Part shown: piece after piece, positions 10,428 through 63,491 of the stretch
Layout: each line of letters opens with the position of its first letter
Position numbering within the stretch: the stretch's first letter is position 1
Source of the DNA: Candidatus Gottesmanbacteria bacterium
Lineage (GTDB): Bacteria > Patescibacteriota > Microgenomatia > UBA10105 > UBA927
DNA length: 64,000 nt
Assembly: GCA_030679255.1 (NCBI GenBank)
Contig: JAUXTO010000025.1
Coordinates: 8,719-72,718 of the forward strand
Direction of reading: 5' to 3'
Made by a program: the position numbers and the translations under genes
The notes under the pieces: generated by a model
The model's database searches: none
What the model saw: the letters and a program-made list of their open reading frames with translations, nothing else
What the model was told of the DNA's origin: nothing

Positions 10428-11627
10428 ATGGACCTACTAAAAAATATAGACGCCCTTCTCATTACTAACCCGACGAATATCCGGTATCTCACTGGATTCG
10501 TCGGTGCGGCGCCGGAGGAGAGGGAAGCATACTGCTTGCTTACCAACTCTCAAACGTATCTCTTCATTAATGCGCTTTATACTGAATACGCAAATACACT
10601 TGTTTCACCATCTAAGCAAGGCAGTAATAATCCAATAATCCAATTCTCAAATAATCCAATAAAAATAGTCAAAATTTCCCGCGGGGAACCTTTTGCAAAA
10701 AAACTTGGTGATGTTCTGAAAAGGTCTCACCTTGCCAAACCGCAAGGTGAGACCTTAAAAGGAATTCGCCTCGGATTTGAAGAGAGCAACTTGACCGTCG
10801 CAGAATTCGAAAAATTAAAAAAAGAATTGCCCGGCATCACCCTTGTCCCAACACAAAACAGAATTGAAGAACTCCGGATGATCAAGCGCGATGATGAAAT
10901 CGAAAACATCCGACAGGCTGCAAAGATTACGGATCAGTGTTTTACCTATCTTACCACCATACTAAAACCTCGTGTTACTGAACTTGAAATCGCCTGGAAA
11001 ATCGAGTCCTTCATTCGCTCCCGCGGCGCGGGTCTTGCCTTCTCCCCCATCGTCGCGTTTGGCTCAAACACCTCGCAACCGCACTATTCACCAAAATCTA
11101 GCCTTAAAAGGTCTCACCTTTTAAGGCTAAAAAATCAAGATATTGTGCTACTGGATTTCGGCGCGAAGATTAACGGCTACTGCAGCGACATGACCCGCAT
11201 GGTGTTTATTGGCAAACCCGAGGCTGAATGGGTGAACGCTTACGAAACGGTTTCGAGAGCGCAAACCATGGCTCTCGAGTATCTAGCCTCAAGGCCTGGC
11301 CTTGAGGCTACGGGTGATAAAGTCGATCAGATCGCACGGGATATCATTGAAAATGCAGGGTTCCCTACCTATCCCCACTCTCTGGGTCACGGGGTGGGAT
11401 TGGATATTCATGAAGCACCACGATTGAGAACCAATCCTTCAATAAATTCAGAACAACCAGTTACATCCCGCGCTTCGCAAAGACTCATGCCCGGCATGGT
11501 CGTCACGGTTGAGCCAGGAATATATATCGAAGGACAGTATGGCGTACGCCTCGAGGATTTGATACTCTTGAAAGAAGACGGGATTGAATTACTATCAAAA
11601 TCAAATAAACATATCACTATACTTTAG
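10428..11627 (+). CDS. M24 family Xaa-Pro aminopeptidase carrying three in-frame palindromic-element insertions
   Basis: M24 motifs (DFGAKINGYCSDMTR, HSLGHGVGLDIHE, VEPGIY). Palindromic elements are embedded at 10717-10762, 11098-11130 and 11283-11310; one of them encodes KSSLKRSHLLRLKNQ. Confidence 0.8.
   Translation: MDLLKNIDALLITNPTNIRYLTGFVGAAPEEREAYCLLTNSQTYLFINALYTEYANTLVSPSKQGSNNPIIQFSNNPIKIVKISRGEPFAKKLGDVLKRSHLAKPQGETLKGIRLGFEESNLTVAEFEKLKKELPGITLVPTQNRIEELRMIKRDDEIENIRQAAKITDQCFTYLTTILKPRVTELEIAWKIESFIRSRGAGLAFSPIVAFGSNTSQPHYSPKSSLKRSHLLRLKNQDIVLLDFGAKINGYCSDMTRMVFIGKPEAEWVNAYETVSRAQTMALEYLASRPGLEATGDKVDQIARDIIENAGFPTYPHSLGHGVGLDIHEAPRLRTNPSINSEQPVTSRASQRLMPGMVVTVEPGIYIEGQYGVRLEDLILLKEDGIELLSKSNKHITIL
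10717..10762. repeat. REP-like family 1 derivative (extended palindrome around ggtctcacc / ggtgagacc)
   Basis: tgaaaaggtctcaccttg-ccaaaccg-caaggtgagaccttaaaagg. It lies inside pepP and is in frame. Confidence 0.7.
11098..11130. repeat. REP-like family 1 element
   Basis: ctagccttaaaagg-tctca-ccttttaaggctaa. In frame in pepP (SLKRSHLLRL). Confidence 0.8.
11283..11310. repeat. Family 1b palindrome (same outer arms, centre aaggcctggcctt)
   Basis: ctagcctcaaggcc-t-ggccttgaggcta. The same 13-bp core appears twice at 2587-2644. Confidence 0.7.
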
Positions 11628-22595: not shown

Positions 22596-22680
22596 ACAAA
22601 TTCCCCAATAGAAGAATGAAAAATAGAAAACGGAAAAATCTAAAAGACGGAGATTTTCTATTATAATGCTACTACAAGGA

Positions 22681-22830
22681 TTCATCCGTCATTGGTACCC
22701 ACTCCTATATTTGGCACAATGGTCGTGAACAGGTAATTAGCCGCCTCGGCGACCTGCTTCTTGAGCAGCGCATTAAACAGTGTACTCTTTCCTGCGTTTG
22801 GTAGCCCGACGATCCCTATGCGTAAGTTCA
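22681..22830 (-). pseudogene. Duplicated 5' fragment of ychF (about 41 conserved codons followed by a stop)
   Basis: The minus-strand translation [43 protein letters not shown]... matches the intact ychF N-terminus at 20815. The DNA is diverged (roughly 75% identity by eye). Confidence 0.7.
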
Positions 22831-22907
22831 TATCGCGTGTATGTCGCGTGTATTGACTATCTTTTAAATTTTTGCTACTATGTTGTTATCACGATGACTG
22901 GACTAGC

Positions 22908-23441: not shown

Positions 23442-23467
23442 TTGATGTCATTATCCCACAAAAAACC

Positions 23468-24322
23468 TCACCGGGCCAGCCTATTGACGCTTGCCCAGTC
23501 TTTATGTCCGCTTCCATGAGACAGTGCGTCCGAGTAGATCTTCAGCACGTCATCAAGGAACGGGACATCCAACTCTGCTGCATATTGCTTGACGTAGGTC
23601 AGATCTTTGACAATCCACTCGATAGAAAACGAAATCGGATCAGCATCGTTGAAATATCGGTCCCGCGCGATTTTAGTTATCACTCCACCCGGACGCTCAA
23701 CGAGCGCTTCTGAAACTTTTTCCAGATCCATATGATGCGCTTTTGCCATCTTCATCGCAGCTCCGAACCCGACGATGTGCAAGGCTTGCATGAAATTCAA
23801 TATCAGCTTGTACCGCATGCCGCGACCAGCCTGCCCGAAGTAAAAAACTTTTTTTGCTATCGCATCAAAAACCGGCTGCAATCCTTTTATGACGGTTGGA
23901 TCACCTCCACAAAGCAAGGTTAACGTCCCGGTTTCCGCACCTATACGACCGCCGGTGAGTGGGATGTCACAGAATTGAAACCCTTGTTGTGCACACAGGG
24001 CAATGAGCTCATCGATCCATTGGACGGATAGTGTCGCGCTGGCAATGAGAATTTTCTTGGCCTCGGCTCCGGCGAGTATGCCGTCCGGGGACTTCCATAC
24101 GGCGCGTGAAGATTCGTCATTGGCCGTCACTTCAAAAATGACATCGGCGCTTGAGGCGACCTCTTTCGGGCTTGCCATCAGTGTGGCTCCCTGTGCGACC
24201 AACTCATCTGCGACTGAAGGAGTTCTATTCCACACGTAAACAGGAAATCCGTGTTTAAGGAAATTGATTGCCATCCCCCGACCCATGATCCCCAACCCAA
24301 CAACGCCAATCTTGAGACTCAT
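23468..24322 (-). CDS. NAD(P)-dependent oxidoreductase of the 3-hydroxyisobutyrate dehydrogenase family
   Basis: An N-terminal Rossmann motif (IGVVGLGIMGRGMA) and a HIBADH-family C-terminal domain. Confidence 0.8.
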   Translation of the reverse strand: MSLKIGVVGLGIMGRGMAINFLKHGFPVYVWNRTPSVADELVAQGATLMASPKEVASSADVIFEVTANDESSRAVWKSPDGILAGAEAKKILIASATLSVQWIDELIALCAQQGFQFCDIPLTGGRIGAETGTLTLLCGGDPTVIKGLQPVFDAIAKKVFYFGQAGRGMRYKLILNFMQALHIVGFGAAMKMAKAHHMDLEKVSEALVERPGGVITKIARDRYFNDADPISFSIEWIVKDLTYVKQYAAELDVPFLDDVLKIYSDALSHGSGHKDWASVNRLAR

Positions 24323-24458
24323 GGGGAAATTGTATCACGGGAAACTATAGTTAGAACATCCTTCATTGTAGTGTTCACCACACCCCGGGGCATGTGATAG
24401 TATTCCATGTCTGTCTAAGAATCTTGACTTATCAATCCTATAGTAGGATAATCCCACA

Positions 24459-25016
24459 ATGAATTATGAAGGACCTATTATTCGAAAATTGGCGTTGGAA
24501 TTGCATAATAACGTTGATTGGAGTACACACCCCTGTCATTTAGGCAACGGAGATTGTTGTGAGGAAAATGTACCAACAGGCGCTTACGATAGACATGTAA
24601 TTTATAATGCAATAAGAACAGGTAACATATCCCAGGTAGTTGTCGCTCAAGCTAAAGAAAGAGCTGCTCAAAATGAGGAATCATGCGGATTTTTTAATCT
24701 AGATACAAGATCTTGTGATGTCTATAATTTTAGACCAGCAAATTGCATTATTGCTGGCACAGGAGGATTTGTTAACGAAAAGTCTCATAATGCAATTGAG
24801 TCGGTATTTAAATACCGCCATACAGGCGAAGACGATGGAGTTGCAATAATGCATATGGGAACATCAATGTGTAGAGGCTGTCACAACAAACTAGCCAAAC
24901 AAGGAAAACGCATACGTGTTGCAATTATTGAAGCGTATTGCACTGTAATTGATGACTATCGTAATAATTCTGCAGAAATTATGAAAATAAATGATTTTAT
25001 TACTGAAATTAAATGA
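24459..25016 (+). CDS. Cys-rich protein, YkgJ/UPF0153-like putative Zn/Fe-chelating domain
   Basis: CHLGNGDCCEE...CGFFNLDTRSCDVYNFRPANC...CRGCHNK. Confidence 0.4.
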   Translation: MNYEGPIIRKLALELHNNVDWSTHPCHLGNGDCCEENVPTGAYDRHVIYNAIRTGNISQVVVAQAKERAAQNEESCGFFNLDTRSCDVYNFRPANCIIAGTGGFVNEKSHNAIESVFKYRHTGEDDGVAIMHMGTSMCRGCHNKLAKQGKRIRVAIIEAYCTVIDDYRNNSAEIMKINDFITEIK

Positions 25017-25167
25017 ATACCACCCATGCAGACGCCTACTTCACCAATGATGTCCCCCCACACCCCGAGGTATGTAATCCTCTGTAAACATACACTCGCA
25101 ATCTATCAATTTATCGGCAGAACGACAAAATAAAAGCAAAAAAAAGAGCTGTGATATAATCACAATC

Positions 25168-25488
25168 ATGATCAAAATTCCCAAATCAAATGCCATCGTG
25201 CATGGTCGTAAAGGACTCAAGGCGAGTTATTATCAACTGCCCGACGTGTTAAACGGTATGACTCTAGCCACCGCAACATTTACCAGTGAACATGGACAAA
25301 GTACGATCGGCGACCGGCCAAGAATCTATTATGTTGTAAAAGGAAAAGGGAAATTTATCATTAACGGCGAGACGGTTCTCGCGGCATCCGGCGATGTAAT
25401 CATCATCCCGCCGAAAGCTACCTACAATCTCTGGCCGATAGGGAAAAAAATCGAAATTTTCCTCATCTCCGAACTATTATCATTATGA
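25168..25488 (+). CDS. Cupin domain protein
   Basis: 106 aa with a small cupin beta-barrel pattern (GDVIIIPPKATYNLW). Confidence 0.55.
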   Translation: MIKIPKSNAIVHGRKGLKASYYQLPDVLNGMTLATATFTSEHGQSTIGDRPRIYYVVKGKGKFIINGETVLAASGDVIIIPPKATYNLWPIGKKIEIFLISELLSL

Positions 25489-26004
25489 ACGTCATCCTTC
25501 GGATGGTCACCTCCCTCAACGGCATCATTGCCAGAATCCATAATGAGGAAGATTTCATTTCCCATGATAGTTGGCTCGTATGGCTTGAAAGCGCCCGGGC
25601 AAACGGCTGTGTCATTTACGGGAGAAAAAACCTATGAAATTATCAAAACGTGGGGGCAGGAGTATTTAGACGATCTCAAGGGTATAAAGGTCATCATTGT
25701 TTCTACGAATAATAAATTCGAGGTCGGAGAGGGTTTTACGCTCGCGCAGTCACCTCAAGACGCGTTGGCGCAAGCGCGACACTTTGGCGTCAAATGCGTG
25801 ACGTTAACCGGCGGCTCTCACATAAACAGTTCTTTCGCGAAGCTCGGCCTCATTGATGAAGTCATTCTCAATGTAGAGCCCGTCATCATCGGCGAAGGAA
25901 TCCCGCTCTTTGCGCCAACTTTTTTTGATCTGAAATTAGAATTATTATCGATGACTCAGTCAAAAGGAAAAACAATCCAACTCCACTACAAAGTGGTGAA
26001 ATAA
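25485..26004 (+). pseudogene. RibD-C-terminal/DHFR-like reductase interrupted by a +1 frameshift in an A6 run
   Basis: Frame A from 25485 gives MNVILRMVTSLNGIIARI...VIYGRKNL followed by a stop. Frame B from about 25600 continues ...GEKTYEIIKTWGQ... to 26004. The two frames join at gggagaAAAAAAcc (25624-25629). Removing one A gives the canonical GRKTYE. Confidence 0.6.
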
Positions 26005-26010
26005 GAAGAT

Positions 26011-26271
26011 TTAATAAATATTTCCCCGGTAATCTATTTTCCGTACCCAAATCTCTTTTTGTTTTTCTAACACTTCAAATAGGGCGCGGACACTCCCGGA
26101 TCGTAAGCGATAAAACCCAGGTGTGCCGACGATCTTTTTAATATCAAGATTCTTGGAAAAGGGAACCGTCAATTGTTGTAATCTACGAAGGATGTTTTTT
26201 GTATCGTAAGAAGCCAAACGGGCGAGATTCTTCTCCGCCTGCTTCGTGAACAATACATTGTATGCATTCAT
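26011..26271 (-). CDS. RelE/ParE family toxin
   Basis: 86 aa with C-terminal ...GFYRLRSGSVRALFEV...IWVRKIDYRGNIY. It follows the antitoxin gene with no gap. Confidence 0.7.
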   Translation of the reverse strand: MNAYNVLFTKQAEKNLARLASYDTKNILRRLQQLTVPFSKNLDIKKIVGTPGFYRLRSGSVRALFEVLEKQKEIWVRKIDYRGNIY

Positions 26272-26538
26272 TTATTGATACTTTTTTACAATATTTCGTA
26301 ATGGAATCCCAACACCGCGGTCCTCTTCTGCCAATTCAGCAGCATCCTGTTCGTCCGTACGGTCTTCTGCCAGTTCACGAAGCCTCGCAAATTCACGCAA
26401 TGACAACATGACAGCCCGTGGGTCGGAATGTTGAAAAAGATACACAAATCCGAGTGAGTCCACGTCAGATAAAACCTTAAGAGGATCTTCCCGAAGATCG
26501 GTAATATTTTTGGTGTTTTGACGGGTTGGTAATAACAT
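26272..26538 (-). CDS. Phd/YefM-type antitoxin
   Basis: 88 aa with ITDLREDPLKVLSDV...RAVMLSLREFARLRE and an acidic tail. Confidence 0.65.
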   Translation of the reverse strand: MLLPTRQNTKNITDLREDPLKVLSDVDSLGFVYLFQHSDPRAVMLSLREFARLRELAEDRTDEQDAAELAEEDRGVGIPLRNIVKKYQ

Positions 26539-26569
26539 AAGGTTATTATGTATAAAAACCTAAGGTTTG

Positions 26570-27229
26570 TCAAGAGGCATCCAGTAGCGAAATAACATCC
26601 TTCATTTTTTCCGCAGTGATATCCGCTCCCCTCTGCTCATACCCCACCGGCAAATGCTGCCGGTAGCCGATGGTAAATAATTCAGCGGCTTTGGCAGAGA
26701 CAATTCCAGGATTGGAATCTTCAAGCGCGACGCTTTGTTTGGAATCGGCATGAAGAATTTTCAATAAATGGAGATATCCATCCGGTGCGGGTTTAGGTCG
26801 CAGTTCCTTATGAGCATTGAGGGATAACACCATAGTGAGGTTCTTCCGCCATGACAAACGACACAACACCTGCTCAATCCAATGCATCGGAGAGGAAGAA
26901 AGCAGGACGATTTGCCAGTCATGCGTTACGAGGTAGTCAACAAGCATGTCAACTCCTTCACTAATGCTACAGCGGTTATAGACGCGCATCGCCGCTTCAT
27001 CAGACTTCTTGTTATATTGATCGTGGGTTATCTTTGATCCCAAGGACTTGGCCTTTTGATAAATGTCTTCAATAGATACCCCGACCATGTCCCCGATCGC
27101 CAACGCAATGTCTTTCCCAAATAGCTTCACATAAAAATCCGCCTCGTCCTCAATCCATGATTTTTCGCTCGCGACAAGGACCCCGTCCATATCAAAGACA
27201 AATAATCGTTTTTTGGTCACACAATGCAT
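26570..27229 (-). CDS. HAD-IA family hydrolase (beta-phosphoglucomutase-like)
   Basis: FVFDMDGVLV is HAD motif I; the other HAD motifs are downstream. Confidence 0.7.
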   Translation of the reverse strand: MHCVTKKRLFVFDMDGVLVASEKSWIEDEADFYVKLFGKDIALAIGDMVGVSIEDIYQKAKSLGSKITHDQYNKKSDEAAMRVYNRCSISEGVDMLVDYLVTHDWQIVLLSSSPMHWIEQVLCRLSWRKNLTMVLSLNAHKELRPKPAPDGYLHLLKILHADSKQSVALEDSNPGIVSAKAAELFTIGYRQHLPVGYEQRGADITAEKMKDVISLLDAS

Positions 27230-27294
27230 TGTATCACGCGCGATGAACACACCGTATTGACATATAATTATATGTATAGTAATATGTTCATCAT

Positions 27295-27576
27295 ATGAAT
27301 ACCATTCCCGTCATCGCAACGGTAGCCGATCTCCAACGTCGATACCGGCCGCTTGTCGATGAATTGAAAGAAACCGGTGAACCCTTGGTCATAGTAAACC
27401 ACGGCGAGCCAGATATAGTCATCTTAGACCCGACTGTCTACAACGCGCAGGTTCACCGACTAAAGGAAATTGAAGAGGCCTATCTCCTCGTCACTCGCGA
27501 CAGAGCACTCGAGGAATACAAAAAAGGGAAGACGATAAAACTTGGCAAGAGTCAAAAGCTCATCGACCTACTGTGA
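27295..27576 (+). CDS. Phd/YefM-type antitoxin
   Basis: 93 aa with PLVIVNHGEPDIVILDPTVYNAQV. A toxin gene follows 4 bp downstream. Confidence 0.65.
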   Translation: MNTIPVIATVADLQRRYRPLVDELKETGEPLVIVNHGEPDIVILDPTVYNAQVHRLKEIEEAYLLVTRDRALEEYKKGKTIKLGKSQKLIDLL

Positions 27577-27579
27577 GAT

Positions 27580-27840
27580 ATGGATGTTGAACTATCGTCT
27601 AACTTTCTCAAACGCGCACGCCGATTGTCCGCGAAAGAAAAAGGAAAGCTCTCCGAATCTACTGAGTGGTTCCGGCGCGATCCTCATGATCCCCGACTCA
27701 AAACCCACGCGCTCACTGGTAAACTCAAAGGAATCTACTCCTTCTCCGTGACCTATGGGAAACGGGTAACGTATATGCGGGTAGACGAGCATACTGCCCT
27801 CTTCACCGACGTCGGATCGCATGAGGATGTATATCGATAA
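27580..27840 (+). CDS. RelE/ParE-superfamily toxin
   Basis: 86 aa with LKTHALTGKLKGIYSFSVTYGKRVTYMRVDEHTALFTDVGSHEDVY, the pattern of the RelE/YoeB-type C-terminus. Confidence 0.6.
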   Translation: MDVELSSNFLKRARRLSAKEKGKLSESTEWFRRDPHDPRLKTHALTGKLKGIYSFSVTYGKRVTYMRVDEHTALFTDVGSHEDVYR

Positions 27841-27885
27841 ACCCCAAAAAAAATTCACTTGACAGAAAATCGTCCTCGTGGAACA

Positions 27886-28311
27886 ATGGAGACAATGAAA
27901 AAGAAACCGGTAAATAATAGTTTTTTCATTTTTTTTGGCAGTGTCGCGTTCATCGTGACAGCGGTCGTCGCAACGGCAATCCTCAACCGCACGAGCACTA
28001 CTACAACCTCCCAGGATGTCCGTGCCCGGGCAAGTGTCACATCGCTCATGCGTCTGACGGCAATTGTCGAGTCTATCGATGAATCAAAAAGTTTGGTCAT
28101 CGTCAATGGATTACAGTTTATGGGAAGTACACCCGAGGGGCTGCAGAGCGTCGCAAGAAATACGGGAGGCCTTTGGACCGTAACGATTTCGGCAGGTGTC
28201 AATCTTGGTACACTTCGCCCCGGGTCCCGCGTAGAACTTCAAGTTAACCCGTCGTCGTTTAATATAGCACAGAAAAGTTTAACAGCTGCCGCCATTACTG
28301 TTTCGCGCTGA
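27886..28311 (+). CDS. Hypothetical membrane-anchored protein
   Basis: METMKKKPVNNSFFIFFGSVAFIVTAVVATAIL (TM) followed by a T-rich linker. The antisense ORF is less plausible. Confidence 0.45.
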   Translation: METMKKKPVNNSFFIFFGSVAFIVTAVVATAILNRTSTTTTSQDVRARASVTSLMRLTAIVESIDESKSLVIVNGLQFMGSTPEGLQSVARNTGGLWTVTISAGVNLGTLRPGSRVELQVNPSSFNIAQKSLTAAAITVSR

Positions 28312-29740
28312 TCCGTACTCCTTCCGGTGTATCTTCGATCATGTAGCCTTTCTCTTTAATTATTTTTCTCACCGCATCGGCATCTCCAAACTTTTTCTCC
28401 CGACGATATTCTTCACGCTGATCCGATAGATTTTGAATTTCTTCCGGAATTTTTTCCTGAGTCCTACGTCCTACATCCTGAGTCAATCTCAGTCCCAACG
28501 CTTCGTCAAAATCCAAAAGCAGATCATACTTATCGGTACTAGGAATATTGGACTTCGCGACTTCCCACGCGACGGCCAACGCTTGGGGCATATTAAGATC
28601 GTTCCCGAGCGCCTGATCAAACTTCTGTCGAAAACCATCCACCTTTTCCAATTTTTCATTTGATAATGTATTTCGATTGGAAATTGGAAATTGGAAATTG
28701 GACATTGCGGCGCGAAGCTCTCCTAATGCGTTCTGCGCGCCGGATAGCGCTTCCCACGTAAAATTCATAGGTTTTTTATAATGCGCAGTGAAATAAAAGT
28801 ATCGAAGTGCCAACGGATCAAATCCTTTGGCGATTACATCGTCAACCGATACGATGTTTGCCAAGGATTTACTCATTTTCGTGCCATCAATCATCAGGTG
28901 TCCGTGATGGATCCAGAACCGCACAAATTGTTTACCCGTCGCCCCTTCACTTTGTGCAATTTCATTGGGGTGATGGACGGCCATGTGTTCCGTGCCGCCG
29001 GTATGGATGTCGATTGTATCCCCCAGATACTTCATCGCCATCGCCGAACACTCAATATGCCACCCCGGGAATCCATCGCCTTTACCCTGACGTCCCGGAA
29101 TGGGAAACGGGCTCTCCCAGTGCATGACGTGATCCGCAAACCGGCCAACGCGTTTGAACCAAAGCACAAAATCCGCGGGATGCTTCTTTGCTTCGCCGGT
29201 GTTAATATCATCGCGTACCGCTACATTTTTCTCCTCAAGTTTTTGGCCAAATAATGAGCCGTATCCGGGAAACTTCGTCACGTCAAAGTACACCGCTTCC
29301 GGCGTATCGTAGGCGATGCCCTTTGCCAATAGTTTTTCGATGAGAGCAATCTGTTCAGGCACATGCTCAGTTGCCTTACATATTACGGTGGGGCGAAGAA
29401 TGCCCAGCTTATCCATCGAATCGTAAAAATTTTTGGTAAAAAACTCCGCTACCTCCCACACGGTCTTCCCTGTTTTCTTCGCTCCCTTTTCCAGCTTGTC
29501 CTCTCCCTCATCCGCGTCGCTTACCAAATGCCCTACATCCGTCACGTTTTGGACGTGGGTCACGTCATACCCGAACCGCGTGAGCACGCGACGTAGAATA
29601 TCATCACCCACATACTTTCTCCCGTGCCCGATATGAGTATAATCATAGACCGTCTGACCGCACGTATAGAACCCTACCTTTGGAGGGTGGAGAGGAACAA
29701 ATTCTTCAAGCTTTTTCGTAAGCGAGTTATAAAGTTTCAT
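28295..29740 (-). CDS. cysS: Cysteinyl-tRNA synthetase
   Basis: HIGH ([10 protein letters not shown]) and KMSKS motifs. A 7-bp tandem repeat x4 at 28676-28707 encodes [10 protein letters not shown]. Confidence 0.9.
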
Positions 29741-29800
29741 AATTATATTCTTGCTCCATTCTATCACGGAACGAACGAATCACCATCAACAATTGATGCA

Positions 29801-30067
29801 CTAATTTTTGTCACTCGTATCTGTCAGGTCAAGATTGTCTCCAAGCAACACTTCATCACGAAATACCCATGCGTGATAATGACAAAGAACCTCTTTCGCT
29901 GCTTCCTCACTGACTTCTCCCGTCTCATCAAGAATGTCCATATCATGCACATCTTTCACATGTCGCACGGCATTATTCCAACGATACAAAACTATCGGAG
30001 ATGGATTCACCAAATCACCATAAGCCTCAAGTATTTGAGCTGCCATGAGCTCTTTGTGTTTCGACAT
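29801..30067 (-). CDS. Hypothetical small protein
   Basis: Start chosen at MSKHKELMAAQ, which has a perfect GGAGG 7 nt upstream. 88 aa. Confidence 0.45.
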   Translation of the reverse strand: MSKHKELMAAQILEAYGDLVNPSPIVLYRWNNAVRHVKDVHDMDILDETGEVSEEAAKEVLCHYHAWVFRDEVLLGDNLDLTDTSDKN

Positions 30068-30087
30068 AGTTCCTCCCGCCCGTTCCA

Positions 30088-30115
30088 CAAAAAAACCCGC
30101 CGATTGGCGGGTTCG
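30088..30115 (-). terminator. Rho-independent terminator on the minus strand, downstream of the PaaX-like gene
   Basis: Read on the minus strand: cccgccaatcggcggg followed by ttttttt. Confidence 0.6.
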
Positions 30116-30262
30116 TCTTGTGATCCTAAGGAAATTATCCCATGAAGCACACAACACAAACTCCCAATCGGGAGGCCGTTGTGCAACAACAAGATACAAC
30201 GTGTTTCATATGATGACATGCATCCTACCATGACTGACAAGATAAAAACAAGAATCAAAAAA

Positions 30263-31090
30263 TCATGCTAATTTCCCTCCGGTCGGGAGTAGATTAGCAA
30301 CGTTTTGAAAATATGGCTTCACGCGGACGTACGCGATGTCTCCTTTCCATGCAGGCGGTAAAATGGCAAATGGAAGCTGCGGGTCATCTTTGAGGATAGA
30401 AAGAAACTGAACCACTGCCCAATGATCCACGCCATCATCGGTTTCATCAAGCCATGTTTTATATCGATCGTTGAGCGCTTCAAGGTTATAAACTCGGGAA
30501 ATCAGAGCATGGACGTCTTCTTCTCCCACCGCTCCATCTTTACCCACGTCAGAAACGATGATGGTGCCCGAAAGTCCCCGCTTTTGAACAAATGTACGGA
30601 TGAGATCAATCGGATTGTACGGTGTAATCCATACGGAATCCTGAAGCCTGCCACAACCAATGCGCTTGATGTACTCCCGCAACATATACCGATCATCAGC
30701 GCGCACCTCCGGAATATCGTAGGTGATCAGATGTAACCGTCCATCCCACACCCGGACCGCATCATACCGGGGAATTACTGAAGCTAAGCGCGCTTTTCCT
30801 GCCTCTGTAATCTTCGGCCAAGATTTGCGGCCGGTAGTCTTGGAAAGATACCCGTACCGCCGGGCGGTTATTATGGCATTTTTTATCACGTCGTAATTGA
30901 CCTCCTGCAAAAATCGATCGGCTGCTGTTATCGCGCGCCATGATTTACCATATGTACCAAACGGCATACTCAATTCCCCAAAGTACGCCATGACCCAGAG
31001 CGTCATATCCACGGCATGAGAAAATACACCCTCGGTGAGCGCTAAAGCCGCACGACTAACCACCCTAGAAATTCTTTTTTTCTTTTCCAT
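30263..31090 (-). CDS. PaaX-like transcriptional regulator domain protein
   Basis: GRLHLITYDIPE...GCGRLQDSVWITP resembles the PaaX C-terminal domain. The gene is flanked by two copies of a roughly 32-bp hairpin repeat. Confidence 0.5.
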   Translation of the reverse strand: MEKKKRISRVVSRAALALTEGVFSHAVDMTLWVMAYFGELSMPFGTYGKSWRAITAADRFLQEVNYDVIKNAIITARRYGYLSKTTGRKSWPKITEAGKARLASVIPRYDAVRVWDGRLHLITYDIPEVRADDRYMLREYIKRIGCGRLQDSVWITPYNPIDLIRTFVQKRGLSGTIIVSDVGKDGAVGEEDVHALISRVYNLEALNDRYKTWLDETDDGVDHWAVVQFLSILKDDPQLPFAILPPAWKGDIAYVRVKPYFQNVANLLPTGGKLA

Positions 31091-31409
31091 ACTCCCAACC
31101 TACGACTTTTTATAAATCTTGTCAATTTTCCTCCGGTCGAGAGTAAATTAGCATGATTTATAAAAGAACTACTACAGGCTTGACAAACTCTCTCTCTCTC
31201 TGTAAAATCCTCACTATAGGTCATACAAGCCCCGCTCTTTGCTGCGGATTTTTTGTTGATCTACCAGTCTTATTTGCACTTTGACAGGTTGCGGAAAGTT
31301 GAGCTCTTTTCAAAGGGCGAAATCCTGAGCTGAACCGAAGGAACGCTCCTCTTCTTTCCATTGGATAGCGTTTTTGGCATGCATTACTCGTGCCTGATAC
31401 GCTATCGCA

Positions 31410-31808
31410 ATGGAGATAGAAAAAATAAAAGTAAGCTTAAAAAAGGAGATTGCAATGAAACCAGGAACACAAGAAGCAACGGAATACGCACGAATCTACA
31501 ATATCGAACCACAAAAGGAAGAAGAGGCGGATGCTGACTTTCGCGGTCGCGTCTCAGGCGTTCTACGAGATCGAAATTTGATCATCGAAGCGCACGAAGC
31601 GTTCAACAATGAACGCTTTGACCAAAGCGACGATGTCATGACCGGCATCATGGGCGCAATGGCGCAAAAGTTGCAGAACGCTGACTACGGATCCGAAGGC
31701 GAACGGCAAGTCGATGATGACTTTGCCGCGGGCATCGTTGTCCAAGCGCCAAAAAAGGATGCCAGCATGGCACTCCTTTCGCTCATGCTCTTTGGAGACA
31801 AACGATAA
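31410..31808 (+). CDS. Hypothetical acidic protein
   Basis: 132-aa ORF with AGGAG before an internal MKPG start. No family recognised. Confidence 0.4.
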   Translation: MEIEKIKVSLKKEIAMKPGTQEATEYARIYNIEPQKEEEADADFRGRVSGVLRDRNLIIEAHEAFNNERFDQSDDVMTGIMGAMAQKLQNADYGSEGERQVDDDFAAGIVVQAPKKDASMALLSLMLFGDKR

Positions 31809-31917
31809 CAATTTTCCGCACCACCGTGCAAAACCCCCGACGAATTTCATTTGACTGACGCATATTTTGTGTCGACAACAGTCAAGTGACGTTCCCGGGG
31901 GTTTTTATTTATCCCCA

Positions 31918-32142
31918 TTACAACAGCTTCTGCAGGTCTTTTGGCATAAGATTAATATCAGTCAGAATGGATCGAAGTAATCCTCTGCCAATGTCACGGC
32001 CTGAGTGAAACGGTACGACCGTTGTCCGGCCGTCTGCATGCTTAAAAAAGAAATGGCTTCCTTCTTGGCGAATATTTATAAACCCTACGCGCTTCAATAT
32101 TTTTATCAGTTTTCGGGCCGTAAGCGTCGGCAATTGGGTCAT
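31918..32142 (-). CDS. hicA: HicA family toxin
   Basis: LIKILKRVGFINIRQEGSHFFFKHADGRTTVVPFHSGRDIGRGLLRSIL is the HicA signature. Confidence 0.8.
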   Translation of the reverse strand: MTQLPTLTARKLIKILKRVGFINIRQEGSHFFFKHADGRTTVVPFHSGRDIGRGLLRSILTDINLMPKDLQKLL

Positions 32143-32435
32143 ATGAATTGCGGTGCGGGGACAAATACATCGCGGATACCCACAAAACCAGATGCGTTCT
32201 TATGGGGAAAATCTATGCTGTCGCGATACTGTTGATCATTTTGTGCAACATCAAGACAGAGGCTAATTGCTTCCTCTATGTGCTCTACTGCTTCTTCGTA
32301 CGTATTTCCTTGACTATGACATCCGGGGATGGCCGGACAATCCGCAACGAACACACCATCTTCATCCTGCGTCATAATAACCTTAAAATTTAAGATATTT
32401 GTCATAGATATATACTCCTCAAGGCATTGTATCAT
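32139..32435 (-). CDS. hicB: HicB family antitoxin (UPF0150)
   Basis: DEDGVFVADCPAIPGCHSQGNTYEEAVEHIEEAI. It overlaps hicA by 4 bp. Confidence 0.8.
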   Translation of the reverse strand: MIQCLEEYISMTNILNFKVIMTQDEDGVFVADCPAIPGCHSQGNTYEEAVEHIEEAISLCLDVAQNDQQYRDSIDFPHKNASGFVGIRDVFVPAPQFI

Positions 32436-32482
32436 GCAACTACTCCGTTGACAAAATAACTATCTGGGCCTACCATGATCAC

Positions 32483-33343
32483 ATGACGACAAATTCATCT
32501 TCAAGCGGTATTTTATCATCTCTTACTTCATCGTTCCGTCTGATTAAAACAATCGCCCTTATCATCTTCGGTCTGTTCATCTTCCGTTCAACGCTCATCT
32601 TTGTCCCTGCCGGACACGTGGGCGTTGTCTACGACAGCGGTCGGGGCGTCCTTCCGCAATCGATGAAGGAAGGCCTCAATTTCGCAATCCCCCTCTGGCA
32701 AAAGATCACACTCTTTGATACCCGGCTCCAGGAATACACCATGTCTGCGTCGCCGGACGAAGGAGCGCTCCGGCGCGATGATTCTCTTGACGCGCCGACC
32801 AGCGACGGACAAACCGTCAAGGTAGACGCGACCGTCCTTTTCAAAGTCAACGGCGAGAAAGCACCGGAGATCCTGAAAACAATCGGTGAAGATTATGTGG
32901 ACAAGATTATCCGTCCCTTTAGCCGGAGCCAAATCCGCATGGTCATCAGCCGCTATACCGCTCCTGCTATTTACTCCGAGAAACGCCAGGAAGCGGAAAC
33001 CACGATGACCAAGGAGCTCGGCGACATGTTGGAAGGGAAATACTTGATTTTGGATAAAGTATTGCTTCGTGCAGTATATTTTTCCCCGGAGTACTCCAAG
33101 GCAATCGAGCAAAAAGTCGTCGCCGGGGAGCGCGTCAAGCAGGCAGAATATGAAGTGAAGGAGGCGACCCAACGGGCCCAGGCAAAGATAGCCGAAGCCA
33201 AAGGACTGGCCGAAGCACAAGCACTCCAAAAAGCATCACTCACTGCGGAATATCTACAACTGGAAGCCATCAAAAAGTGGGATGGGAAACTCCCCCAGGT
33301 GACCGGGGGTTCCTCACCATTCATCAATATTCCTTTGAAGTAA
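32483..33343 (+). CDS. SPFH/band-7 (prohibitin/HflKC-like) membrane protein
   Basis: An N-terminal TM helix, an SPFH core, and a coiled-coil A/Q/E-rich C-terminus. Confidence 0.8.
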   Translation: MTTNSSSSGILSSLTSSFRLIKTIALIIFGLFIFRSTLIFVPAGHVGVVYDSGRGVLPQSMKEGLNFAIPLWQKITLFDTRLQEYTMSASPDEGALRRDDSLDAPTSDGQTVKVDATVLFKVNGEKAPEILKTIGEDYVDKIIRPFSRSQIRMVISRYTAPAIYSEKRQEAETTMTKELGDMLEGKYLILDKVLLRAVYFSPEYSKAIEQKVVAGERVKQAEYEVKEATQRAQAKIAEAKGLAEAQALQKASLTAEYLQLEAIKKWDGKLPQVTGGSSPFINIPLK

Positions 33344-33841
33344 TTAGTCTTGTCGTACGTTTCTTCCGACTTCGGTCGTATTCTTTTTGGCTTTCATGCC
33401 GTACAGGTCCCCGCGCTTACGTTTGGATGAGACGGCGGCAAGTTGTTGCGTGCTTGCTTGTTTCTGCTGCTGTTTAGCAAGTTCTTTCTTTTGTTCGGCT
33501 TCCTGCACTTGCCTCTCCCACACGCCCGGCTCTTTCTGCTTTTGCCCGCCCCCCGCAAGTTGAGCAAGTGCCGCGCGGGCAACTGCTTGCTTAGCTTGTT
33601 GGTCTTTGGCTGCTTTCATCGGGTCAAGCGGTCCTTTTTCCCCGCTCTTTTGGTCTTGTCCAGCGGAGCTGGATCCCGCTCTGCGGGATTGCTGTGGCTT
33701 TTTACCCGATGATACCCCCAAGCTCTCCATTGCTTTCCCCACGACATCCTTGGGGACGGCAACCGCCTCGCGGATAATATTTTTCCCAAGCTCCCCAAGC
33801 TCATCCGTAAATGCCCCGATCATGCTTCCAGGGTTAGGCAT
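33344..33841 (-). CDS. Hypothetical low-complexity (Q/K/A-rich) protein
   Basis: A 165-aa ORF. It may not be a real gene. Confidence 0.35.
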   Translation of the reverse strand: MPNPGSMIGAFTDELGELGKNIIREAVAVPKDVVGKAMESLGVSSGKKPQQSRRAGSSSAGQDQKSGEKGPLDPMKAAKDQQAKQAVARAALAQLAGGGQKQKEPGVWERQVQEAEQKKELAKQQQKQASTQQLAAVSSKRKRGDLYGMKAKKNTTEVGRNVRQD

Positions 33842-33857
33842 AGTATTATTCGTTCAT

Positions 33858-33933
33858 GTCACTCCCGCGAAGGCGGGAGTCCAGAATTTTCTTGAATTGT
33901 TTAACACTGGATCCCCGCGTACGCGGGGATGAC
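33858..33933. repeat. Family 2 multi-hairpin element, intergenic copy in opposite orientation
   Basis: gtcactcccgcgaaggcgggagtccagaattttcttgaat...tggatccccgcgtacgcggggatgac. Confidence 0.75.
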
Positions 33934-33945
33934 AACACTAAATCT

Positions 33946-34248
33946 TCAAAATCCAAGTTGTGCCTTCGCTTCCTCCGTCATACGGTCCATACTCCACGGC
34001 GGCTCAAACGTAAGTTCTACTTCCACACGTTTGACGCCTTTCAATTTCCCAACCTCCTCGCGGATCGGGCCGGCAATCAAGTCAAAGAGCGGGCATCCGA
34101 TGGTCGTGAGCGTCATGAGAATCCGGATCGTGCCCACCTTTTTGTCTATCCCAATCTCATAAATGAGCCCCAGGTCCCAAAGCGACACCCCTATTTCTGG
34201 GTCCGGAATGGTCTTCAAAATTTTTTCTACTTGTTTTTGGGTAATCAT
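33946..34248 (-). CDS. DUF59/MIP18-family Fe-S cluster assembly protein (SufT-like)
   Basis: IPDPEIGVSLWDLGLIYEI...TLTTIGCPLFDLI...PPWS. Confidence 0.8.
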   Translation of the reverse strand: MITQKQVEKILKTIPDPEIGVSLWDLGLIYEIGIDKKVGTIRILMTLTTIGCPLFDLIAGPIREEVGKLKGVKRVEVELTFEPPWSMDRMTEEAKAQLGF

Positions 34249-34257
34249 ACAGAATAA

Positions 34258-34385
34258 GCACCAAGCATCAAATCACAAATTCCAAACAAATTCCAATATC
34301 AAAATTCTAAATTCTAAACGTTTTGAACATTGGTGCTTAAAACCTTGATATTGTTTGTAATTTGGTGCTTGTGATTTGGTGCTTA
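34258..34385. repeat. Family 3 long imperfect hairpin element, second copy
   Basis: gcaccaagcatcaaatcacaa...ttgatattgtttgtaatttggtgcttgtgatttggtgctt. It shares ttgatattgtttg exactly with the 15003 copy. Confidence 0.7.
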
Positions 34386-43572: not shown

Positions 43573-43639
43573 AGTCTTCAGTCGTCAGTCTTCAGTCATC
43601 AGATAATCTGATAGCTGATAGCTGATAGCTGATAGCTGA
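43573..43639. repeat. Tandem and palindromic repeats in the rplK-rplA spacer
   Basis: agtcttcagtc appears twice, tcagataatctga is a palindrome, and gatagct appears four times. Possible L1 leader structure. Confidence 0.6.
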
Positions 43640-49118: not shown

Positions 49119-50270
49119 TTATGAAAGGAATTGTGTGACAATTGCAAGTACTTCTTGTTTTTGTACTTCTGTAACCACCACTTCCACGATTCCCTCCTCG
49201 GGCCCGCCTGCAACGCTATGCGTACCCGTCTGCAGCGATGCAGCAGCTTCGGGCAGGGCATTGCGGGCAGGCTGACCATAATAAAGAATACTTCCCAATG
49301 GAGCGTATTGGATGACCGGTAGGACTAAGAGGTCTTCTTCGCCGTTCACGATGATGGCGTGATGCGTATCTCCTGGTCTTACTTTTCTGGCAAGCGCTGC
49401 TTGTATTGCCACCACGGCATCACGACTAATAAACCCCGGTCCACTATGCAAAAATTTAGCCTTAAAAGGTGAGACCTTTTGAGGCTGAAGTCTGTTTACT
49501 ATTTCCGGGAATGGTTTCCGGCCTACTTGGCCATCAATGACGGCCAAGCACGGCATGACGCCGAGATCCAACACGGTCTTCGTCGATAAATCCCCGACCG
49601 TTATGACGAAATCGTGTTCGTGTGACCGTATCGAGACGTCTATCGCTTTTCCACGGAGAATCTTCCCCATCGGCTTGCCGAGCGCGGCGCGCAGCCTCTC
49701 CGGCATGATGAGTCTCCCGTCCCCGTCAATCTCTCCCTTTCGCAGCCGTGTCGAAGAAATCGGCTTTCCATCCTCGGCCGGTACGATCGGCACTTCGATG
49801 AGCGCGAGCGGTGACAGGGCCAGGCCCTGTCTGAGACCATTGATACGCTCTCCGGTCGAACGGTTCTCATATGTGACAATGAGCGCAGTGAGATCCCTCA
49901 TGCTCGCCGCAGGTTCGTGAGGATCAGAGATCGGGATAATGGTCGTCCGATTGAAATATCGTCGCTTGTGCAACCATGCTATGAGATAGCATTTCCTTTC
50001 TTTATATGTGCTTATTTTTTTTTGAATTTGCACATTGGGATTTGTTTGGTCATTGGGATTTGGAAATTGGGATTTATACTTTACAACAAACTCGTCTGTT
50101 GTCAGCCCGATAGTCACCCGCTCGCCTACCCGAAATGCCTCAGATAGAATTGATCGGTGCCCCGCGTGGAGCCCGTCAAACGTCCCGGCGACGAAAATGT
50201 GGTGATATAAATAATCTTTTAGAAGTTTATTATTAAGGATAGTCACAGAGGAATAATACAATATGATCAC
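49119..50270 (-). CDS. Fusion: archaeal-type phosphopantetheine adenylyltransferase-like (HxGH) N-domain plus a DUF359/dephospho-CoA kinase-like C-domain
   Basis: The N-domain has FVAGTFDGLHAGHRSIL...IGLTTDEFV. The C-domain has VITVGDLSTKTVLDLGVMPCLAVIDGQVGRKPF. It hosts a 10-bp repeat block at 50032-50075 and a REP-like element at 49447-49478. Confidence 0.5.
   Translation of the reverse strand: MIILYYSSVTILNNKLLKDYLYHHIFVAGTFDGLHAGHRSILSEAFRVGERVTIGLTTDEFVVKYKSQFPNPNDQTNPNVQIQKKISTYKERKCYLIAWLHKRRYFNRTTIIPISDPHEPAASMRDLTALIVTYENRSTGERINGLRQGLALSPLALIEVPIVPAEDGKPISSTRLRKGEIDGDGRLIMPERLRAALGKPMGKILRGKAIDVSIRSHEHDFVITVGDLSTKTVLDLGVMPCLAVIDGQVGRKPFPEIVNRLQPQKVSPFKAKFLHSGPGFISRDAVVAIQAALARKVRPGDTHHAIIVNGEEDLLVLPVIQYAPLGSILYYGQPARNALPEAAASLQTGTHSVAGGPEEGIVEVVVTEVQKQEVLAIVTQFLS
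49447..49478. repeat. REP-like family 1 element
   Basis: ttagccttaaaaggtgagaccttttgaggct. In frame in the PPAT/DPCK-like gene (QPQKVSPFKA). Confidence 0.8.
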
Positions 50271-55906: not shown

Positions 55907-57031
55907 CTAAGTCTTCAAAACCTTCTGATAGACTTTTTCGTAACCCTCGACCATTTTCTCTACGGTAAAGTTTTCCTCGACATGCCTCCGGCAAGCGGCG
56001 CGGTCGATTTCTCCGATGCGTTTGACGGCTTCGACCAGCCCCTCTACCCCACGTTTTTTGATGACCCACTTCCCGTCTTTATTGGTAGTATTGGTAGTAT
56101 TTGTCTGATTTGTAGTATTGGTAGTATTATCATTTGGTTCTACGATAAACCCCGTCACTCCGTCCTTGACGATTTCAGAAACTGACCCCCGGTTGTAGGC
56201 GATGACCGGCGTCCCGCACGCCATGGCCTCAATCATCACGAGCCCAAACGGCTCTTCCCAGTGGATGGGGAATAGGAACGCTTTCGCATTACCTAAAAAA
56301 TCATACTTCAACGGACCAATCATTCGATCTAATAGACGAATCATCGCGCCATCAACTTCAGCGTTTATGCGTTTCAGATATGCTTCCTGGCCCTTTTCCT
56401 CAAAACCAACAAGCGTCAGCACGTCTCCAGTTTTTTTTGCCGTCATGATTGCATCAATTGCCCCTTTATTTTCCGAAAAACGTCCCATCCAGGCTACATA
56501 CGATGGTTTCTGTGGATGGAAAACAAATGGAACGTTTAAAGCGTCAATACCGTTGTAAACTACGCTCGAGAAATGGATGTAGGGCAACGCTCGTTTGGCG
56601 CCTTCGGATAATGCTATAAAAAATTCATGAGGAAATCGTTCGAATACTTTCTGTTCCCGCATCGCAAAATTAGCGCCGTGTGTGGTTGAAACGACGGGTG
56701 GACGAACCGCATGGATATAGGGTAATAATACGTGCTCTATATGACTATGTACGATATCAAACTGACCGAGCTCCGGAACTATTTTTTCTGCATACGCATG
56801 CTGAAGCGCAACACTTTCACGATCAAATAGTGATCGACCGGATTCTTTGAGCGATGGGCCACTAAAGCGCAGCAATACACGCGGAAACACTGACTTATCC
56901 GGAGCAAACACCGTAACCGTGTGGCCTCTCGCCTTGAGCCCCAAGGTGACATCCCGCACCACGGCTTTTATACCGATTGCCTTCTCAGAATCAAACGCAG
57001 ACCAATTGGGTAAAATTTGCGCAACGTTCAT
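55907..57031 (-). CDS. GT4 family glycosyltransferase
   Basis: EEPFGLVMIEAMACGTPVIAYNRGSVSEIV. An internal TNTTNQTNTTNTTN stretch comes from ttggtagtat repeats at 56081-56129. Confidence 0.85.
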   Translation of the reverse strand: MNVAQILPNWSAFDSEKAIGIKAVVRDVTLGLKARGHTVTVFAPDKSVFPRVLLRFSGPSLKESGRSLFDRESVALQHAYAEKIVPELGQFDIVHSHIEHVLLPYIHAVRPPVVSTTHGANFAMREQKVFERFPHEFFIALSEGAKRALPYIHFSSVVYNGIDALNVPFVFHPQKPSYVAWMGRFSENKGAIDAIMTAKKTGDVLTLVGFEEKGQEAYLKRINAEVDGAMIRLLDRMIGPLKYDFLGNAKAFLFPIHWEEPFGLVMIEAMACGTPVIAYNRGSVSEIVKDGVTGFIVEPNDNTTNTTNQTNTTNTTNKDGKWVIKKRGVEGLVEAVKRIGEIDRAACRRHVEENFTVEKMVEGYEKVYQKVLKT

Positions 57032-58188: not shown

Positions 58189-58193
58189 AATGC

Positions 58194-62449: not shown

Positions 62450-63430
62450 TTAGCTTCGCCAAGTTTGACTTGACGAAGCTAGCTTTTTCCCGAGCACCAG
62501 CCAAAGGAATTGGAGCAACCGTAGTTGTCTCCCAAACCGCCAAGGTTCAATGACCAGCCGCCAGAGCCACTCGAGGCCAAGCGATCGGAAAAAATGCGGT
62601 GCGCGGGGCACTCGTCCGGCAATGATGTCAAAACTGCCGCCGACGGACATGAAAACGATGCTTTTCCTGTCATCCCGGGCTTGACCCGGGATCCATTCTT
62701 TTTTCTCTGGATTCCGGCTCAGAGGCCGGAATGACAAAATATGGGCAAGCTGCTCTATAAAAAATTCCTGCTTCGGTGCCCCCAACCCCACGAAGACGAT
62801 GCATATCCTTGTTTTTCTTATCTTTTCAATAATATCTTTCGTGTATTGGTAGTATTTGAGTATTGTCCCGCTGCTGTTTCCGATATTTATTGGATTACAG
62901 CAGCGTGGATCCCGCTTCGCGGGAGTAGCATTTGACATTGGTAGTATTGGCATTTCCTCCGGCTCCTCCGCCCACCCCACCAACCCCGGATACTTTATTT
63001 TCAGTTGCCCGAGCGCCTCCTGCGCCACTCCATCTCTCCCGCCGATGAGCGCGACCGGCCAACCCTTTGCCGCGGCCATCGCCACCAGATCTTCCATAAA
63101 CTCCACACCGGGGATTCTTTGCAAACCTATGTCCTGAGTCTTATGTCCTACGTCCTTCCCAAGAAAACGCAGCGCGGCGACAAGACCTATCCCGTCCGGG
63201 ATTGCCACATCAGCACCATTAAGGATCTCAGCAAAATGTTTATCGGTTTGCGCGGCGATGATCTGTTCCGGATTCGGTGTGACAATAACGAGGGGTTTCC
63301 GGTTTTTATTGGATAATTGGATAATTGGATAATTGGATAATTCTAAGTACTTCCGTACATGTTCTACTATTTCATCCTTTGGACTCGCCGTCACCGATAT
63401 TCCGAGTATTTTTGTTGATGCCAACTTCAT
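62450..63430 (-). CDS. WecB/TagA/CpsF (GT26) family glycosyltransferase with in-frame repeat insertions
   Basis: LVIVTPNPEQII...DVAIPDGIGLVAALRFLG...GLGAPKQE. The element at 62669-62735 encodes EKKEWIPGQARDD. An 8-bp repeat x4 sits at 63309-63342. Confidence 0.7.
   Translation of the reverse strand: MKLASTKILGISVTASPKDEIVEHVRKYLELSNYPIIQLSNKNRKPLVIVTPNPEQIIAAQTDKHFAEILNGADVAIPDGIGLVAALRFLGKDVGHKTQDIGLQRIPGVEFMEDLVAMAAAKGWPVALIGGRDGVAQEALGQLKIKYPGLVGWAEEPEEMPILPMSNATPAKRDPRCCNPINIGNSSGTILKYYQYTKDIIEKIRKTRICIVFVGLGAPKQEFFIEQLAHILSFRPLSRNPEKKEWIPGQARDDRKSIVFMSVGGSFDIIAGRVPRAPHFFRSLGLEWLWRLVIEPWRFGRQLRLLQFLWLVLGKKLASSSQTWRS
62669..62735. repeat. Family 2 multi-hairpin element, in frame in the WecB/TagA gene
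   Basis: gtcatcccgggcttgacccgggatccattcttttttctctggattccggctcagaggccggaatgac. Confidence 0.8.
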
Positions 63431-63491
63431 AGTAATTGTTCTGTTGGTAGTATTTGTAGTATTTGATTATTTGATGATTGGTAGTATTACT

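Follow-up and report, generated by a model that had tools for sequence, protein, structure and literature searches.

Short tandem repeat arrays are present in genes and intercistronic spacers of a 64,000-nucleotide (nt) stretch of contig JAUXTO010000025.1, which belongs to a metagenome-assembled genome (MAG) of Candidatus Gottesmanbacteria and will be referred to as the window. They lie in cysS, the gene for a cysteine--tRNA ligase, in wecB, which encodes a glycosyltransferase of the WecB/TagA/CpsF family, in a GT4-family glycosyltransferase gene, in a pepQ-like gene and in the rplK-rplA and mreB-wecB spacers; a further repeat patch is found in a fusion gene for phosphopantetheine adenylyltransferase and dephospho-CoA kinase (PPAT/DPCK). 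An original prediction had listed four arrays with non-triplet units, in cysS, wecB, the GT4 gene and the PPAT/DPCK gene, and had taken those of the two glycosyltransferases for classical slipped-strand phase variation. The arrays in cysS and wecB were found as described and the other two had been mis-described; the four quoted peptides were correct.

Arrays were detected by Tandem Repeats Finder (TRF) and by a perfect-repeat scan of the window, and their periodicity was evaluated by the offset-match fraction. Three perfect tandem repeats with a unit of at least 7 nt and at least three copies were obtained (28676, 43608 and 63308); by chance, second-order Markov simulations of the window yielded approximately 0.5 perfect repeats of any 4-15-nt unit. 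As in heptameric simple sequence repeats (SSRs), the head-to-tail copies were far above chance, with offset-match fractions of 0.96 (cysS) and 0.90 (wecB). Distant relatives with at most 65% identity, among the matches listed in a cysS-alignment scan of genome contigs, served as background for repeat density; this comparison is biased, as the Gottesmanbacteria loci had been chosen for carrying arrays, and only the window's own counts were relied on. No match to a known RNA family was obtained from Rfam anywhere in the window at gathering thresholds.

The closest cysS homologs (65-89% identity) derive from Candidatus Gottesmanbacteria and the Patescibacteria group, and the WecB and GT4 proteins of the window have identical counterparts on a Gottesmanbacteria MAG contig at NCBI (P0121 in the case of WecB). 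As the window itself originates from a MAG and short-read assemblers can mis-size repeats, the arrays might be artefacts of assembly or sequencing. However, with 32-49 nt they are shorter than a read, and equivalent in-frame arrays were obtained both from 80 metagenome loci and from orthologs that belong to unrelated samples (see below). Moreover, two contigs of the Logan assembly of run SRR13727518, a second assembly probably made from the same reads, showed 100% identity to positions 20069-34528 and 55881-62695 of the window and were continuous through the cysS and GT4 arrays. Logan contig L082 ends within wecB at a dispersed element, short of the array, and the wecB array is thus outside the Logan coverage; an exact look-up of the WecB protein produced no entry. 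Taken together, the probability of an artefact appears negligible.

Two array sites in cysS

The cysS gene (28295..29740, minus strand) encodes an essential enzyme of 481 amino acids (aa) that matched NCBIfam TIGR00435 with 432 bits versus a cut-off of 340, and the same gene call was obtained on a Logan contig. The predicted 7-bp array proved to be real (28676..28707, minus strand; TRF and perfect-repeat scan). It reads GCAATG(TCCAATT)x3.9 on the coding strand and ATTGGAA x4.6 on the plus strand, is perfect over 3.86 units, the last unit having a single mismatch, and encodes the peptide SNFQFPISN, representing residues 347-355 in a low-confidence inter-helix loop of the AlphaFold model. A second, decayed heptamer array, TCAGGAT GTAGGAC GTAGGAC TCAGGAA, with the peptide QDVGRRTQE is located at 28461..28479 on the same strand (TRF, 7 nt x2.7). 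Both sites are loops between helices with a predicted local distance difference test score (pLDDT) below 50 in a CysRS model with a mean pLDDT of 79.

Most of the 33 aligned orthologs carry a cysS segment of similar length, and many of these segments read as translations of heptamers. Orthologs lacking the low-complexity segment, for which a check had been suggested in the original prediction, were found for WecB, the PPAT loop and the GT4 protein (ortholog P0242). At the main cysS site the window and P0001 share GCAATG(TCCAATT)x3.9, and the DNA of other orthologs consists of a 14-mer, (AATATCCAATTTCC)x2.2 (P0003), of (TCAAATT)x4 (P0004), of (TCAAATA)x4.6 (P0010) or of (CAAATTT)x5.0 (P0033). 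In P0030 the site is not expanded; it contains CAAATTTCTAACTT, corresponding to two imperfect units, and is exactly 21 nt shorter than the five units of P0033. A single base difference between cysS units was present in all copies, being silent in only one of the three frames. Such a change in every copy, despite the amino acid exchanges in two frames, indicates that the copies are homogenised at the DNA level and not via selection on the peptide. The second loop carries unrelated heptamers in each lineage (GTAGGAC, CTATCAG/CCGTCAG, GAGACAA, AAAGTCA x4.9 and ACGGCAA x4.7), the last two forming perfect arrays in orthologs. Judged from these alignments, the cysS array is best read as a hot spot, not as a foreign insertion.

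Two further observations concern the same gene. CysRS of the window contains an 8-aa insert, PIPGRQGK (approximately 29080-29105, residues ~212-219), which occurs in none of 32 aligned orthologs; other CysRS orthologs have their own short G/R/A-rich inserts elsewhere (SRGAGSRFAG, SAKGGSAYGR, KPARQRGR), one of them inside a heptamer array. The (CAAATTT)n arrays in cysS of two relatives (L087, 11012-11046; L090, 1642-1672) contain AAATTTC, which matches the X XXY YYZ pattern of slippery heptamers for -1 ribosomal frameshifting.

Arrays in wecB and elsewhere in the window

The wecB gene (62450..63430, minus strand; NCBIfam TIGR00696) encodes a protein of 326 aa. Its 8-bp array, likewise confirmed by TRF and perfect-repeat scan, is located at 63308..63342 on the minus strand and consists of perfect ATTGGATA x4.4, on the coding strand (TTATCCAA)x4.4, covering codons 31-41 with the peptide LSNYPIIQLSN. 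Past the conserved ...KYLE helix, WecB orthologs contain either no insert or a periodic insert of 7-8 aa. The (TTATCCAA)x4 of the window was found with one mismatch in L083 (60% protein identity), L084 has (TCTACAAA)x4 between the same flanks, and L086 has a single TTATCCAAT, the difference between one and four copies amounting to +24 nt and +8 aa. As known for SSRs, relatives thus differ by whole units at the same locus (+21 nt in cysS, +24 nt in wecB). Further variable WecB loops likewise contain repeats. On the basis of its sequence variants, the wecB site behaves exactly like the cysS site.

The GT4 gene (55907..57031, minus strand; 374 aa; identified by library and structure matches) carries the array AATACTACC x5.3 on the coding strand at 56080..56128 (minus strand; TRF), which shows 80% identity between units and encodes NTTNTTNQTNTTNTTN. 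For this array a 10-bp unit, ttggtagtat, had been claimed; the period is in fact 9 (offset-match fraction 0.72 at 9), and the array is imperfect (80% matches). Its product, NTT NTT NQT NTT NTT, is part of 30 aa that are inserted in comparison with the nearest solved structures (PDB 8x3q/7fg9), and ortholog P0242, which is 84% identical, has no array. With 9 nt the unit preserves the frame and is unable to shift it. The expected frame shift upon a one-unit change consequently applies to wecB (8 nt) and formally to cysS (7 nt), and neither to the GT4 array nor to the PPAT/DPCK patch, which is not a tandem array (see below).

Can these two loci be phase-variable? According to such an explanation, the wecB array would be a contingency locus at which slipped-strand mispairing switches the envelope glycosyltransferase on and off, and the GT4 array would be a length-variation locus. 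Envelope glycosyltransferase genes are typical of phase-variable genes, and as in the contingency loci of Haemophilus, Neisseria and Campylobacter a perfect array of a non-triplet unit lies in the 5′ part of the gene, varies in copy number among orthologs, and causes truncation when changed by one unit: in simulations, loss of one wecB unit led to a stop after 38 aa and gain of one to a stop after 83 aa. However, the four copies in wecB compare with 8-15 copies in those hepta- and octanucleotide tracts of H. influenzae, within genes or close to promoters, that have been proposed as candidate mediators of phase variation (PMC2651432), and arrays of 4.4-4.6 units are short of the tract length at which high slippage is expected. 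Every ortholog state of wecB is in frame (one copy, four copies, or a different 8-mer in four copies), and simulated removal of three units left an intact protein of 318 aa. No out-of-frame allele or copy-number variant was found among the assembled sequences compared, namely orthologs and Logan contigs, the latter not covering the wecB array. The same architecture is present in essential genes in which the off state would be lethal (cysS, LeuRS, recR, mreB, TsaD), and hosts such as RecG, UvrC, UvrD, LepA and GuaA, in addition to these five, do not reflect a preference for surface or envelope, restriction-modification or virulence genes. The 9-nt unit of the GT4 array, finally, has no on/off capacity. 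Phase variation is thus quite improbable, and its assignment to the two glycosyltransferases is unsupported.

The PPAT/DPCK gene (49119..50270, minus strand, given as open reading frame (ORF) limits; true start probably near 50210) was identified by library, structure and ortholog matches as a fusion of an archaeal-type phosphopantetheine adenylyltransferase with a GTP-dependent dephospho-CoA kinase. This fusion is widespread, with 218 cluster representatives matching at E <= 1e-30. In place of the tandem 10-mer in four copies that had been proposed, we found a degenerate patch at 50032..50075 (minus strand) with three copies of AAATCCCAAT separated by 4 and 8 nt and the peptide FPNPNDQTNPN; ATTGGGATTT occurs three times, starting at 50034, 50052 and 50066 (spacings of 18 and 14). 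The best offsets were 7, 14 and 18, each with a fraction of only ~0.5, 10 was not among the top offsets, and the 7/14-nt periodicity is weak. The loop is hypervariable among orthologs and corresponds to a gap of ~12 residues against PDB 3do8. The pepQ-like gene, encoding an Xaa-Pro peptidase (10428-11627), contains the octamer array AATAATCC x4.6 at 10626..10662 (plus strand; TRF) with the peptide NNPIIQFSNNPIK, which lies in sequence that has no counterpart in PDB 5cdl; taken together with its 3′ flank, the array shares 88% identity with that of wecB. The GT4, PPAT and pepQ repeats consequently all lie in insertions relative to solved structures.

Two intercistronic spacers are filled with repeats as well. 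The rplK-rplA spacer (43573..43639, plus strand; TRF and perfect-repeat scan) consists exclusively of heptamers, AGTCNTC x4.3 followed by CTGATAG x4.6, and ends 4 nt ahead of the rplA ATG with no obvious Shine-Dalgarno sequence. The mreB-wecB spacer (63447..63488, minus strand; TRF, 9 nt x4.9) contains 8-9-nt units (AAATACTAC and similar) up to shortly before the wecB start codon, and related arrays are present in the corresponding spacer of L086. With regard to rplA, the ORF (43644-43910 region) shows an N-terminal extension of ~90 aa before the L1 domain.

Copy number, host genes and origin of the arrays

A tendency towards repeats throughout the genome had been put forward for the arrays in cysS and in the CoA gene, and this view was corroborated: beyond the pepQ-like gene and the two spacers, similar arrays occur in recR, mreB, ahcY and the second cysS site of relatives, and the cysS heptamer itself was found in many housekeeping genes of metagenomes. 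In seven further Gottesmanbacteria loci, the copy numbers of the 7-mer arrays in recR, mreB, ahcY, cysS and wecB are concentrated at 4.3-5.0.

An exact scan of JGI metagenomes for (TCCAATT)x3 retrieved at least 120 contigs with three or more copies of the heptamer, and 81 arrays on 80 of these loci were analysed in detail. Inside ORFs of at least 150 aa, 65 arrays had 3.0-5.14 copies, 49 of them 4.29-4.86; outside such ORFs, 16 arrays had 3.0-11.4 copies. More than 5.2 copies were present in none of the 65 arrays within ORFs versus 3 of the 16 outside (Fisher p = 0.0066). The intragenic arrays were read in sense (40; SNFQFPI...) as well as in antisense orientation (25; GNWKLEI...), and all three registers were represented. 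Host genes identified by Pfam encode LeuRS, an Ile/Val-type tRNA synthetase, RecG, UvrD, UvrC, LepA, GMP synthase (GuaA), the CCA-adding enzyme, a GatA-type amidase, MiaA, TsaD, a P-type ATPase, a DNA methylase and a DUF2298 protein. This spectrum is unlike that of contingency loci. In two loci with a TCCAATT array in LeuRS (L118 and L135), a NUDIX domain is inserted after the editing domain.

We consider it likely that the arrays are by-products of the SSR type which arise by expansion of a seed, are tolerated in loops and leaders, are selected for reading frame and do not act as regulatory switches. A short local seed would expand into an array of 7-, 8- or 9-nt units by slipped-strand or misalignment-type replication errors, and the array would survive, presumably as neutral sequence, only where additional letters are harmless, namely in intercistronic leaders and disordered surface loops. 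Within genes, selection for the reading frame would permit 7- and 8-nt units only changes by three units (+21/+24 nt, +7/+8 aa). Restriction to such changes would explain why intragenic arrays have ~4.3-5.0 copies, representing one to two ancestral units plus three, and why the encoded peptide corresponds to successive readings of the unit in its three frames (SNFQFPI; LSNYPIIQ). Arrays would further be renewed at the DNA level, either by homogenisation or by collapse and re-expansion, and would decay by point mutations, with the result that, in orthologs, a given hot-spot loop contains another unit, a decayed array or no array at all.

Several points weigh against this explanation. Simple slippage requires two or more copies to begin with and usually adds a single unit, and does not lead one to expect four copies where there had been one; the intermediate copy states would be lethal in an essential single-copy gene, and the single-step gain of three units is something we infer rather than have observed. 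Arrays outside ORFs also gather near 4-4.6 copies (9/16), hinting at an intrinsic length preference beyond frame selection. Among arrays of at least 3.5 copies in other loci, heptamers far exceed hexamers and octamers. In addition, units recur at unrelated loci and genomes, as seen for AATACTACC, which occurs eight times in the window versus 0.28 expected, and for the 3′ flank shared by the pepQ and wecB arrays; this could reflect sequence-specific amplification or transfer of arrays.

Bacteria of the candidate phyla radiation (CPR) such as Gottesmanbacteria might possess a distinct repeat-generating mechanism by which a seed of 7-8 nt is amplified to approximately four copies at once (a gain of ~21-24 nt), after which non-triplet arrays in genes would be frame-locked. 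We regard this as a tentative proposal, less probable than expansion by ordinary replication errors. As changes by one or two units would be lethal in genes, frame-locked arrays may be unusually persistent. If it is true, essential proteins of reduced genomes would regularly acquire new disordered loops from such arrays, and the heptamer excess and four-unit preference in prokaryotes would have a general explanation independent of G-quadruplexes.

Three rules for the size and composition of the arrays were rejected, the last of them for cysS and wecB. G-quadruplexes are not the cause of the four units: the plus strand of the window has GG tracts, and the ortholog arrays TCAAATT and TCAAATA have none. 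A G-less sense strand fits many units and fails for ACGGCAA, GTAGGAC, GAATCAG and CTGATAG. The commonest length among the analysed metagenome arrays was 30 nt; insertion of a preformed 30-nt cassette does not agree with the cysS and wecB ortholog pairs, which differ by +21/+24 nt around an existing seed; at other loci such an insertion may have occurred.

Alternatively, the arrays might be selected functional elements, either protein linkers or disordered regions, a role proposed for Borg repeats, or RNA or DNA binding sites, as has been proposed for the TAACTGA repeats of Beggiatoaceae; examples would be A/C/U-rich leaders without structure or sites to which S1, Csp or CsrA-like proteins bind. 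The TAACTGA repeats lie just upstream of start codons, including those of ribosomal-protein operons, and a few are in ORFs (MacGregor 2015, PMC4679880), and their spacer arrays often lack a Shine-Dalgarno sequence (PMC4679880); the rplK-rplA and mreB-wecB spacers are likewise filled up to the start codons. Identical loop sites have been used repeatedly across many lineages, the cysS arrays of the window are identical in a relative with 85% nucleotide identity, and the GT4 loop encodes five N-X-T motifs, all of which would fit a function. On the other hand, the peptide at one site varies freely across lineages, arrays in ORFs use all registers and both orientations, and many orthologs lack the segment altogether. 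Moreover, there was no Rfam match in the window and no unit motif common across sites. Selection for a function is therefore unlikely, though somewhat less so than phase variation.

Compared with known repeats, the arrays are most similar to heptameric SSRs, which are over-represented in prokaryotes; the GGGNATC repeats of Xanthomonas and Nostoc prefer four units, which was ascribed to G-quadruplexes (Rehm et al. 2015, PMC4692102). With these repeats, the short tandemly repeated repetitive (STRR) sequences of heterocystous cyanobacteria and the TAACTGA repeats, our arrays share 7-nt head-to-tail units and partial units at the flanks, with GGGNATC also the preference for approximately four units (PMC4692102), and with TAACTGA the position in spacers a few nt upstream of start codons, as in the rplK-rplA spacer. 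The G-quadruplex reading is inapplicable here, because ortholog units such as TCAAATA lack G tracts. A minority of the known heptameric SSRs lies inside ORFs, where they have the same 7-aa period; here, in contrast, 65/81 arrays of the sampled heptamer were inside ORFs, with essential housekeeping genes among the hosts. The units also differ in being AT-rich and diverse and not members of one family, and the lineage, Gottesmanbacteria, belongs to the CPR. In the searchable literature on SSRs and tandem repeats, no description of such arrays in CPR/Patescibacteria was found. Contingency loci differ in turn, as our arrays have four copies, occur in the same form in essential genes and are found only in in-frame states among relatives.

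Borg tandem repeats give rise to disordered regions, and their intragenic units are without exception multiples of three in length (Schoelmerich et al. 2023, PMC9879509). Similar to them, our arrays are perfect, recent and independently arisen, are flanked by partial repeats, encode low-complexity or disordered segments and occur in intergenic regions as well. In contrast, the units here have 7 nt (cysS) or 8 nt (wecB, pepQ) and keep the frame by threes, only the 9-nt unit of the GT4 array fitting the Borg rule, and copy numbers are low and nearly fixed.

Expansion of local seeds under frame selection would remove an attractive but unsupported annotation, that of phase-variable glycosyltransferases in an uncultivated CPR bacterium, and put in its place a testable regularity: in loops of essential genes, non-triplet arrays become established only as a seed extended by three units. 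This would provide a handle on rates and step sizes of repeat mutation in unculturable organisms, help to account for part of the lineage-specific inserts of low complexity which make CPR proteins difficult to align and annotate, and bear on why heptamers, often in about four copies, dominate long prokaryotic SSRs.

Further repeats and dispersed elements

Additional imperfect 7-8-nt arrays were observed in intergenic regions of the window at 513-640, 3717-4068, 18342-18431 and 34276-34384, with the units CAAATCTG, ATTTGTAG, ATTCGTAG, GAATAATA, TTATTCGC and CAAATTC; ATTTGTAG is the reverse complement of the wecB unit of L084. The rotated form of CTGATAG in the rplK-rplA spacer (TAGCTGA) is one base off the TAACTGA repeat of Beggiatoaceae. 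Inside wecB, two copies of the 9-mer AATACTACC (62848-62856 and 62940-62948), 92 nt apart, border a lineage-specific WecB segment (...ATPAKRDPRCCNPINIGNSSGTIL...), and L086 has a AATACTACC x4.6 array at this position. The segment between the two copies may represent an insertion into a former array.

Two dispersed elements accompany the arrays. The first, a 31-nt palindrome of the form TAGCCTTAAAAGGT-CTC/GAG-ACCTTTTGAGGCTA, is present in six copies (11099-11129, 49457-49488, 53337-53371, 55078-55108, 55331-55361 and 55879-55909), several of them inside long ORFs. Its translation is KSSLKRSHLLRLK in the pepQ-like gene, where it adds ~7 aa in frame compared with PDB 5cdl, and QPQKVSPFKAK in PPAT/DPCK. 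The element is similar to selfish palindromes inserted in frame, for instance those of Rickettsia. The Rickettsia palindromic elements (from Ogata et al., 2000) and the small dispersed repeats of cyanobacteria (from Elhai et al., 2008) are said to be selfish short DNA inserted into protein genes without loss of frame. Our window, which contains two dispersed palindromic elements inside ORFs, has in common with them that tolerant loops of housekeeping proteins are colonised in frame; the tandem arrays differ from the Rickettsia and cyanobacterial elements in being non-palindromic and, in cysS and wecB, the two cases with a non-expanded ortholog, in being derivable from a local seed.

The second element, TGTCATCCCGGGCTTGACCCGGGATCC..., has four copies in the window (3892-3931, 20065-20104, 62668-62707 and 63846-63885), and both Logan contigs terminate at copies of it. 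The copy in WecB encodes SFRPLSRNPEKKEWIPGQARDD, a segment common to many WecB orthologs, and another copy is located in mreB.

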